Positions 29,611-40,219 of a stretch of 44,504 bases of DNA are shown piece after piece. A program made the position numbers and the translations under genes. This DNA is from a bacterium (GTDB lineage: Bacteria > Bacillota_I > Bacilli_A > RFN20 > CAG-826): NCBI GenBank assembly GCA_029098125.1, contig JAQXNS010000065.1, positions 1 through 44,504 of the forward strand, in the 5' to 3' direction. The stretch's first letter is position 1. The number at the start of each line of letters is the position of its first letter. Under the pieces are notes generated by a model that had not been told where the DNA came from, did no database searches, and saw only the letters and a list, made by a program, of their open reading frames with translations.

Positions 29611-29687
29611 GTCCTCGTAGCGTAATTGGATAACGCAATCGCCTCCTAAGCGATAGATTACGAATTCGAGTTTCGTCGAGGACGCCA
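29611..29687 (+). tRNA. tRNA-Arg (anticodon CCU)
   Basis: Cloverleaf: acceptor GTCCTCG/CGAGGAC, D stem GCGT/ACGC, anticodon stem ATCGC/GCGAT with loop CTCCTAA, T arm ACGAA-TTCGAGT-TTCGT, encoded CCA. It starts 9 nt after the polC stop. Confidence 0.95.
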
Positions 29688-29703
29688 TTTATTTAATTCT
29701 CTA

Positions 29704-29732
29704 TTGAAAAATAGGGTTTTATTTTGTACTAT
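29704..29732 (+). promoter_or_regulatory. candidate promoter TTGAAA-N17-TACTAT driving the downstream GC-rich RNA
   Basis: TTGAAA at 29704-29709, 17-nt spacer, TACTAT at 29727-29732. It overlaps a weak CTATT-GAAA-AATAG hairpin that may terminate the tRNA transcript. Confidence 0.45.
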
Positions 29733-29738
29733 GTAGAT

Positions 29739-29833
29739 GGTTGGGGATATGGAGAATATACCCTCCGCTTAGTCGGAATGGAGACCTTAAACCCATTCGC
29801 TTAGTGGTGGCGCACCTTAAAACGCTTTTTTTT
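29739..29833 (+). ncRNA. candidate structured small RNA or cis-leader, unclassified
   Basis: A GC-rich island in AT-rich DNA, bounded by the promoter above and a T8 run (29826-29833). Hairpins at 29743-29763, 29776-29798 and 29806-29816. Internal degenerate ~30-nt modules: CGCTTAGT twice, ACCTTAAA twice, ATGGAGA twice. Confidence 0.45.
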
Positions 29834-29838
29834 ATACC

Positions 29839-30348
29839 ATGGAAAACTATAAAGAATCTTGTCGTTTACTATTGCATAAAGTTGCTAAAAAATATAAAAA
29901 ATTGCTCGGTAAGGATTTTATAATTGAATCTAAAGATTTCAAGAATAGGGAAAGATATATTTTGAGATTTTATGAAGGAAACTTCTTACATTTGACCGGA
30001 GTAAAAACTAATATCAAACCTTCTATTTTCTTTGAAAAAGCTCTAACTAACCAACTAACAATTGATGATTTCGATTGTGATTCAACAAAAGAAATTAAAG
30101 GCTATACTAAAGAAAAAATTCCTCATCTATTAGATATTGACATATTTTTTAGTAAAAATTTAGAAATTCAAGAGAATTACACAAGAGGAAAGGTGTTTTG
30201 TTTGATTGCCGCTAGCGGAGGAAATTTTACACTTGGTTTTACAGGAGGCAGTGGCGCTCTTAATCCGATGACTTTATTAAACAGAAACACAATAAATCAT
30301 GATAAATCGACAAATAATTATTCGATTACGATTTTAAAACGTATGTAA
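29839..30348 (+). CDS. hypothetical 169-aa protein; possible BECR-fold (PBECR-like) RNase toxin
   Basis: Long ORF in an otherwise non-coding tRNA-adjacent gap, with no SD. The motif YILRFYEGNFLHLTGV resembles, from my recollection only, phage Barnase-EndoU-ColicinE5/D-RelE-like nuclease domains. The functional call is tentative. Confidence 0.45.
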   Translation: MENYKESCRLLLHKVAKKYKKLLGKDFIIESKDFKNRERYILRFYEGNFLHLTGVKTNIKPSIFFEKALTNQLTIDDFDCDSTKEIKGYTKEKIPHLLDIDIFFSKNLEIQENYTRGKVFCLIAASGGNFTLGFTGGSGALNPMTLLNRNTINHDKSTNNYSITILKRM

Positions 30349-30440
30349 TCGCATAATAAATGTTTAATTCTAAGTTTATTAATTCCTTTACAAATTTCTT
30401 ATTGACTATTCACTACGTTACACCAAGACCTGTTGTTATG

Positions 30441-30473
30441 AAGTATTGGTAATAAATATCAGTACTTTTTTTC
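30441..30473 (+). terminator. terminator after the 169-aa ORF
   Basis: AAGTATTG ... CAGTACTT 8-bp stem (one G-U pair) with an 11-nt loop, followed by TTTTTTT. Confidence 0.55.
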
Positions 30474-40059: not shown

Positions 40060-40170
40060 AAAAAAACATACTACAAGAATTATGTATGTCTTTTAGAATT
40101 TAATCCGTAGTGCTAGATTACGGTCCAGCGTAGAGACTTCCTACCAATTAAGGAATTATACGAAATCAAT
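40060..40170 (-). promoter_or_regulatory. purine riboswitch (guanine class) with terminator expression platform
   Basis: Minus-strand RNA UCGUAUAAUUCCUUAAUUGGUAGGAAGUCUCUACGCUGGACCGUAAUCUAGCACUACGGA matches the xpt G-box architecture: P1, J1/2 UAAU, P2 with a GG loop, J2/3 GUCUCUAC, P3 with a CC loop, and J3/1 ACU with C at the specificity position. It is followed by an ACAUAC...GUAUGU stem plus U7 (40060-40090). Confidence 0.85.
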
Positions 40171-40171
40171 C

Positions 40172-40219
40172 TTCCGATTGACGGAATTATTATAAATCAA
40201 GTTGGTTATTGGTTTCCAA
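40172..40219 (-). promoter_or_regulatory. candidate promoter (TTGGAA-N19-TATAAT) plus TTCCG-N5-CGGAA palindrome at the predicted transcription start site (TSS)
   Basis: On the minus strand, TATAAT lies at 40189-40194 and TTGGAA at 40214-40219, an over-long spacer. The perfect palindrome TTCCGATTGACGGAA at 40172-40186 overlaps the expected TSS. Confidence 0.3.

Follow-up and report, generated by a model that had tools for sequence, protein, structure and literature searches.

A repeated pseudoknot RNA next to a PBECR4 gene: a candidate type III-like toxin-antitoxin cassette in Bacilli

What is the function of a short, repeated, G+C-rich segment that lies between a tRNA gene and a gene encoding a protein of 169 aa? 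The segment is found in a contig of 44,504 nt from a bacterium of the lineage Bacillota_I; Bacilli_A; RFN20; CAG-826 (assembly GCA_029098125.1, contig JAQXNS010000065.1, positions 1 to 44,504, forward strand). This whole stretch is called the window, and all coordinates without a locus name refer to it. From sequence comparison, region 29699-30429 is read, with a probability of about 0.7, as a toxin-antitoxin cassette that is complete in itself and resembles type III. The protein belongs to PBECR4, a family of predicted RNases, and its pairing with the RNA most likely represents an undescribed family of RNA-antitoxin (type III) systems. A limited literature search found no description of PBECR4 or other BECR (barnase/EndoU/colicin/RelE) proteins paired with an RNA, nor of such a new type III family. 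The elements of the putative cassette are given below with the evidence for each.

29699-29725, + strand: palindrome CTCTATT-GAAA-AATAGGG, then TTTTATTTT; read from the sequence.
29704-29732, + strand: promoter-like site TTGAAA-N17-TACTAT; consensus scan, 9 of 12 positions matched.
29740-29771, + strand: repeat unit 1, degenerate; minimum free energy fold; hairpin 29743-29764 (GGGGAUAU-GGAGA-AUAUaCCCU), linker CCGCUUA.
29772-29803, + strand: repeat unit 2, canonical pseudoknot module; covariance-model match and covariation over 37 modules.
29804-29833, + strand: repeat unit 3, terminal module and putative weak intrinsic terminator; alignment; nearly invariant in Bacilli loci.
29839-30348, + strand: gene of the 169-aa PBECR4 protein, predicted metal-independent endoribonuclease and putative toxin; Pfam, homologues and AlphaFold2.

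The features listed by the initial annotation of this DNA are all present where it placed them: a promoter-like site, a run of eight T (T8, 29826-29833), an ATG (29839) located 5 nt further on (spacer ATACC) and devoid of a Shine-Dalgarno (SD) sequence, and words repeated at spacings of 29-32 nt (CCCTCCGCTTAGT/CCATTCGCTTAGT, 32 nt; ACCTTAAA twice, 30 nt; ATGGAGA twice, 29 nt). The RNA segment spans about 93-95 nt (29740/29741-29833). It is indeed G+C-rich for this genome: 0.39-0.43 over 29700-29849 versus about 0.25-0.32 around the segment and 0.295 for the entire window. The annotation also described a good promoter; the hexamers are there (see above), but in the consensus scan such sites are not enriched in this AT-rich window over shuffled sequence. 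In the window and in its relatives, the first module is immediately preceded by hexamers that resemble a promoter, and distant relatives have their own TTGACT/TATAAT-type promoters, which end 6-10 nt before the first module. Transcription would start near 29739-29741. The 5-nt gap between T8 and ATG leaves no room for a second promoter. A single promoter, shared by the RNA and the putative toxin gene, is likely. No SD-like word precedes the 169-aa open reading frame (ORF). This absence is real yet not unique, since only 21 of the 36 long ORFs of the window carry one; an SD-less start is general in the clade of the window, whereas other clades have an SD.

The previously proposed three hairpins and modules of about 30 nt are correct, except that the third hairpin (29806-29816) is better read as the first stem (S1) of a pseudoknot (29804-29806/29813-29815). 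In unit 2, S1 is formed by GUC (29772-29774) and GAC (29783-29785) and the second stem (S2) by GAAUGG (29776-29781) and CCAUUC (29793-29798); the A-rich loop is CUUAAAC (29786-29792) and the linker GCUUA (29799-29803). In unit 3, GUG (29804-29806) pairs with CAC (29813-29815) in S1 and GGCG (29809-29812) with CGCU (29823-29826) in S2, with the loop CUUAAAA (29816-29822). S2 of unit 3 shows compensatory changes in relatives (GGCG/CGCC to GACG/CGUC in locus L010; CGGCG/CGCCG in L015). Together with T8 it would form a weak terminator (29809-29833), which the consensus scan did not call because the stem is too short. Unit 1 no longer has a GUC/GAC stem or an A-rich loop. Its hairpin stem is retained with different, compensatory sequences in L079, L081 and L083, and a full pseudoknot module occupies its position in more distant Bacilli loci (L004, L006, L009, L010, L012, L022). 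A covariance model of one module has a single match in the 44.5 kb of the window (29767-29804, 43.3 bits, E 3e-11).

Is the association of this RNA with PBECR4 genes general? Loci encoding homologues (75 loci, 25-90% identity, several phyla) were compared, and the 170 nt upstream of each start codon were inspected. Nearly every homologue with upstream sequence is preceded, on the same strand, by two or three tandem modules and a terminator just 5′ of the start codon. About 50 loci carry modules of class A, about 18 carry an array of class B directly 5′ of the ATG, and most others are contig ends or rearranged. Class A (consensus GUC-(N)-stem-A-GAC-NUUAAAC-stem; period 32-36 nt, the units of the window having 29-32 nt) is found in metagenome-assembled genomes of Bacilli, Treponema, Streptococcus mitis, Streptococcus pneumoniae, Granulicatella, Gemella and a plasmid of Clostridium estertheticum. 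Class B (units of about 53 nt: a hairpin followed by GUUG-G-stem-CAAC-AGAAAAA-stem) is found in Lachnospiraceae, Dorea and Roseburia; the proteins of these carriers share 25-31% identity with that of the window. Many of the carriers are gut, rumen or oral bacteria. The class A covariance model gives 53 matches in 438 kb (both strands), the best with an E of 5e-14. Every match is on the toxin strand, and 49 of them precede the toxin ATG by no more than about 200 nt; the four exceptions (one in L005, three in L035) are RNA arrays that lack a toxin gene or are separated from it by an insertion sequence (IS). A clear G+C-rich hairpin followed by a T-run separates modules and toxin gene in the Treponema, Streptococcus, Clostridium plasmid and Lachnospiraceae loci.

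The modules fit an H-type pseudoknot. S1 has 3-4 bp (GUC/GAC), the first loop 0-1 nt, and S2 4-7 bp of variable sequence; a single invariant A follows the S2 strand, and the third loop, which is A-rich, lies where it could cross the minor groove of S1. Among 37 distinct class A modules, 87% of cells are paired; shuffles reach 68%, and sliding the partners gives 35-44%. The covariation score (0.533 versus 0.19) is reached by none of 500 shuffles. Both-sided, compensatory changes affect six of the seven S2 pairs. RNAalifold finds S2 independently, with six pairs that are all compensated. The outer pair of S1 is formed in 28 of the 37 modules versus 15.2 expected (p < 5e-5), as GC, UA, AU or CG, and GAUC/GAUC replaces GGUC/GACC in L020. 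Class B has the same topology with an S1 of GUUG/CAAC; 93% of its cells are paired, a value that none of 500 shuffles reaches. These data support the folding of each repeat as a pseudoknot, the predicted S2 showing strong covariation.

A conserved small coding sequence for a leader peptide or a protein antitoxin, on one strand or the other of 29741-29833, was considered as another explanation. A TTG-initiated ORF of 60 codons (29741-29923) overlaps the region, antisense ORFs recur in some loci, and public gene calls of three homologues (P0036, P0043, P0045) run 35-40 codons upstream, through the structured RNA. These extensions translate to nearly the same peptide as the upstream region of the window, which indicates conservation of the non-coding DNA. 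The substitutions are paired compensatory stem changes, not codon-like ones, and the number of modules and the indels differ between clades, so that any reading frame is broken. No plus-strand ORF family is common to the loci, and the minus-strand matches are in different frames and follow the conserved RNA. The coding explanation is thus rejected as very improbable. More generally, an all-against-all comparison of ORFs located within 1.5 kb of the toxin gene in the 75 loci found no neighbouring protein family common to the clades; the recurrent "ORFs" beside the toxin gene are antisense artefacts of the conserved RNA.

The RNA is under stronger constraint than the toxin gene. Its identity exceeds that of the coding sequence (95-99% versus 78% at the nucleotide level in L079), and units 2-3 are 94-99% identical in L079, L081 and L083, where the toxin genes are just 72-78% identical. 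Searches against Rfam 15 found no match on 29741-29833, whether with the gathering threshold or with E relaxed to 10, and none on the equivalent region of 15 related loci; the scan proposed with the initial annotation thus gives no known family that explains the segment. Signal recognition particle (SRP) RNA and other housekeeping RNAs were rejected, since Rfam gave nothing up to E 10 and the segment lacks the domain IV motif of SRP RNA.

The second partner is the 169-aa protein. It had been likened to a phage BECR-fold nuclease, and the Pfam assignment agrees with this prediction: PBECR4 (PF18813; E 6.6e-16, 59.7 bits for a cut-off of 27) is the only family matched up to E 10, and ToxN_toxin is not matched. 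Relatives score 62.8-138.5 bits against PBECR4. No match was found in NCBIfam, PADLOC or PHROGs. The PBECR domains are predicted RNases of the barnase/EndoU/colicin/RelE fold that were first described in polyvalent proteins of phages and plasmids, with a His/Thr active-site pattern (PMC5512222). Among 52 homologues (34-97% identity to the protein of the window), the invariant residues are N48-F49-x-H51-L-T-G-V55, D77, K93, E112, C121, T131-x-G-F134 and P143. H51 (helix 48-53) and the late T131 (strand 130-136), located on the AlphaFold2 model, are invariant in 32 sequences and may be equivalent to the published catalytic His and Thr. RNase activity and toxicity of the protein are thus predictions. 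The model is very confident (pLDDT 95.7, pTM 0.89). Two phage proteins in BFVD share its fold (TM 0.73). A profile search of 1.84 billion cluster representatives matched 1,186 clusters with E up to 1e-3, 365 of them with E up to 1e-10. Among the 150 best matches, most have 165-275 aa, i.e. are stand-alone proteins. Genomes of cultured phages gave no match and IMG/VR one weak partial match.

Sequence context shows that the cassette is mobile. The flanking genes differ between close relatives, and the plasmid copy of C. estertheticum adjoins a SIR2 gene. Several loci appear degraded. The toxin frame matches only residues 1-108 (L003), 2-74 (L057), 2-64 (L058) or 16-57 (L062) of the query, with intact upstream RNA; truncated toxins with intact repeats have also been reported for cptIN loci (PMC3401426). 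Directly past the PBECR4 gene of L002 (3590-3770) are found a second promoter/palindrome and then a different tandem RNA (2 x 43 nt, GGUCUGAGGGUAAGACCUUAAAAAGAAAUCCC) with a terminator; no toxin ORF follows, i.e. this is an orphan antitoxin-like array. Downstream of the PBECR4 gene of Coprobacillus (L035, 3570-3790) lie two more cassettes of modules and terminator, neither followed by an ORF. In L005 (1400-3000), an ISL3 element (DDE_Tnp_ISL3, E 5.7e-36; terminal inverted repeats CTCTAAAGTTTAGTGGGG) is inserted exactly between the RNA terminator and the PBECR4 start codon; the three-module RNA is intact, and this insertion is a natural uncoupling of the toxin from the promoter. Truncated toxins, toxin-less arrays and IS insertion look like the decay typical of toxin-antitoxin loci. 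Two candidates were rejected at these loci. What seemed to be a third repeat type ("class C", CCCCACTAAACTTTAGAG) before the toxin gene of L005 corresponds to the terminal inverted repeats of the inserted ISL3 element. Flanking direct repeats do not represent att sites: the palindrome/promoter segment is conserved in L001-L003 and L008, and its second copy, in L002 and L008, heads the second RNA array.

Could the RNA act only in cis, as a riboswitch-like leader or a protein-binding attenuator that senses a ligand or PBECR4 and sets termination at the T-run? The last module overlaps the terminator stem, the ATG lies immediately past T8, and the very high conservation of the RNA would be in keeping with a pocket for a ligand. 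Known aptamers such as preQ1-I and SAM-II are built as small H-type pseudoknots with A-rich loops. However, no alternative antiterminator pairing is evident, no riboswitch of Rfam matches even at E up to 10, and the loci of Treponema, Streptococcus and Lachnospiraceae have a terminator hairpin of their own, distinct from the modules. Arrays that possess a promoter are retained where no ORF lies downstream or where the toxin is truncated, which is not expected of a pure leader, and the downstream gene is always the same solitary RNase, without metabolic context. A cis-regulatory leader is therefore less likely than an RNA antitoxin and is considered rather unlikely.

Still less probable is a precursor that PBECR4, as a dedicated processing enzyme, would cut into guide-like or decoy small RNAs directed at other targets. 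The repeated units with short linkers beside a predicted endoribonuclease, the better conservation of the RNA than of the protein and the existence of orphan arrays would fit such a precursor. Against it, the modules lack a variable spacer-like segment, their variation is confined to compensatory stem changes, there is no other conserved partner gene, and decay and IS disruption of the toxin gene are those expected of a harmful gene. An RNA antitoxin is favoured by the lack of a conserved protein partner, the constraint on the RNA, the mobility and the toxin-antitoxin-like decay.

A toxin-antitoxin cassette of this type could function as follows. A single promoter would give an RNA of about 95 nt made of a degenerate hairpin, a canonical module and a terminal module, about 30 nt each, every full module folding into a small H-type pseudoknot with its A-rich loop in the S1 minor groove. 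Most transcripts would end at the weak terminator (last module and T8), which would put the RNA in excess; occasional read-through would give the mRNA of the SD-less PBECR4 gene, which would be poorly translated. PBECR4 would bind the pseudoknot units and thereby be held inactive; it would probably first cut the precursor between the units. If transcription stops or the RNA is degraded (e.g. phage infection, cassette loss), free RNase would cleave cellular or invader RNA. Processing, binding, neutralisation and biological role are all inferred from sequence.

The initial annotation had compared the layout to that of type III loci. This likeness is strengthened by the comparison of upstream DNA that it had proposed: the layout with a repeated RNA is kept before PBECR4 homologues across distant phyla, the pseudoknots of this RNA covary and no protein partner is found. 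The features of the type III class are present, i.e. same-strand tandem repeats, intervening terminator, pseudoknot repeats and no protein antitoxin. To our knowledge, RNase-based type III systems have comprised three families since 2012 (toxIN, cptIN and tenpIN), with toxins reported as ToxN/Kid-like. AvcID and AbiF were added to type III later.

CptIN (Eubacterium rectale/Coprococcus; PDB 4RMO) is close in organization: same order of promoter, about two tandem repeats, terminator and toxin of about 160 aa, chromosomal location in gut Firmicutes, and truncated toxins with intact repeats in both. In its crystal structure, the CptI repeat folds as an H-type pseudoknot whose first loop is a single base and whose long loop makes A-minor contacts (PMC4627078), and this topology (one-base first loop, long A-rich loop) is that of the modules described here. 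However, the CptI repeat has 40-48 nt versus 29-32 nt for the class A units here, the RNA sequences are unrelated, and CptN has a Kid/ToxN-like fold, whereas the PBECR4 protein and its Roseburia relative have no sequence match in the PDB and the model has no Foldseek match to 4RMO. ToxIN and AbiQ share the layout and the proposed logic (excess of repeated RNA through termination, processing by the toxin, toxin binding), and metal-independent RNase chemistry would be expected of both. They differ in that the PBECR4 protein has no match to Pfam ToxN_toxin, to the PDB sequences (2XDD, 4ATO, 4GLK) or to their fold, that the repeats of the window are fewer and shorter, and that its toxin gene is SD-less. 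The statement that the protein does not resemble ToxN or AbiQ is therefore upheld: PDB sequence searches were empty for the single protein, the family profile and the Lachnospiraceae-type (Roseburia) relative, and Foldseek found no match to ToxN, AbiQ, CptN or Kid. Membership in toxIN and cptIN is excluded, since the toxin is not homologous to ToxN, AbiQ or CptN.

TenpIN loci also have about two tandem repeats, with a conserved adenosine stretch and a predicted two-stem pseudoknot (PMC12283969). Their repeats have 39-57 nt (PMC3401426), i.e. are longer than class A modules. Models of TenpN have been reported as ToxN-like with a kinked helix (PMC12283969), whereas the PBECR4 model has no match among ToxN structures. 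The plasmid NZ_CP056218.1, cited in PMC12283969, contains no ORF that carries the published TenpN signature. Membership in tenpIN is very unlikely, TenpN being compared by description only.

The PBECR domains of the polyvalent proteins of phages and conjugative elements (Iyer et al. 2017, PMC5512222) belong to the same Pfam family, PBECR4, and have the predicted His/Thr active site; here, the gene is solitary, chromosomal or plasmid-borne, and always located behind a structured repeat RNA. Neither PMC5512222 nor a 2026 preprint on BECR classification mentions an RNA partner or a toxin-antitoxin role for PBECR domains. RelE/RelB, YafQ/DinJ and colicins D and E5 share the predicted fold superfamily and the RNase role. 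The inhibitors of RelE, YafQ and the colicins are proteins (RelB, DinJ and immunity proteins, respectively); in the present loci no conserved protein partner is found, and the place of the antitoxin is taken by an RNA. It is fairly probable that the toxin has a BECR (RelE/colicin-like) fold, not a Kid/ToxN one, that RNA-pseudoknot antitoxins arose independently, and that such systems are widespread in gut, rumen and oral Firmicutes and in spirochaetes.

Several findings weigh against a type III-like cassette. Of the three units of the window, a single one is fully canonical, since unit 1 is a degenerate copy and S2 of unit 3 has just 3-4 bp. Tandem Repeats Finder calls no repeat at the RNA array, and the nested single-sequence fold of the RNA is no more stable than shuffles (z = -0.03). 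With promoter-like sites as common as in shuffled sequence, the window alone gives weak statistical support, as would be expected of functionless short repeats and hairpins arisen by chance in a tRNA-flanking spacer. Such an artefact is refuted by the comparative data and is extremely improbable: the same RNA lies upstream of homologues in dozens of unrelated genomes, and the covariation is significant. The S1 core is invariant within each class (GUC/GAC, GUUG/CAAC), so that direct covariation of S1 rests on the outer pair, the GAUC variant and the way in which the two classes differ. Since the modules are related by descent, they are less independent than the shuffle statistics assume; the slid-partner controls preserve this relatedness and are still clear. 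The known type III antitoxins vary greatly in sequence (PMC3401426), unlike the present RNA, which is better conserved than the toxin gene. RNase activity of PBECR4 is a published prediction only (PMC5512222). Finally, Foldseek of the model against the PDB gave nothing at E below 0.5, and just scattered weak matches to RelE, YafQ, ParE and HigB (E 0.8-4, probability ≤0.16).

If the proposed pairing is true, type III systems gain a new toxin fold, and neutralisation by an RNA pseudoknot would be a convergent solution. The solitary PBECR4 proteins (about 1,200 clusters at 50% identity) would gain a testable function, and a compact family of 30-nt pseudoknots, which Rfam lacks, would be added. 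The annotation of these loci would also gain, ORFs being now extended into the RNA by gene callers (P0036, P0043, P0045). The system is tractable: confident protein model, small RNA and cultured carriers (Streptococcus mitis, Granulicatella elegans, Dorea hominis, the Clostridium estertheticum plasmid).

The two features that border the cassette are the following.

29611-29687, + strand: tRNA-Arg(CCT); ARAGORN, and Rfam tRNA with 65 bits; upstream neighbour, context only.
30441-30472, + strand: AT-rich hairpin AAGUAUUG...CAGUACUU and T-run; read from the sequence.

Related cassettes follow tRNA-Arg(TCT), tRNA-Gly, -Ser, -Leu or -Met, or no tRNA, and the tRNA adjacency is therefore incidental. 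Targeting or mimicry of the tRNA was also rejected. CGCUUAG, present twice in the RNA linkers (29766-29772, 29797-29804), could base-pair with the 3′ half of the tRNA-Arg anticodon arm (29646-29653); since the linker varies between clades and the neighbouring tRNAs differ or are absent, this is judged a coincidence. The core of the palindrome (29699-29716, CTCTATTGAAAAATAGGG) is followed by a T-rich tail, and its loop carries the -35 box of the promoter-like site. The palindrome (29699-29725) could be a terminator insulating the cassette from read-through of the tRNA gene, or an operator. At the other end, the segment common to L001 and L002 (blastn) ends at 30429, and the hairpin 30441-30472 is just outside. 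This hairpin is tentatively proposed as a possible terminator of the toxin gene; it was not called by the consensus terminator scan, having too few G-C pairs.

Other structured RNAs were found in these sequences. In L016 (2742-2788, - strand), a DUF3800-XI RNA motif (RF02975, 39.9 bits, just over the gathering score) is found after two tRNA genes, some 130 nt before the PBECR4-associated RNA. The window also carries a purine riboswitch aptamer (40088-40183, - strand; RF00167, 50.2 bits) and a 5S rRNA gene (148-252; 80.7 bits), a helix region of which is shorter than the Rfam consensus.

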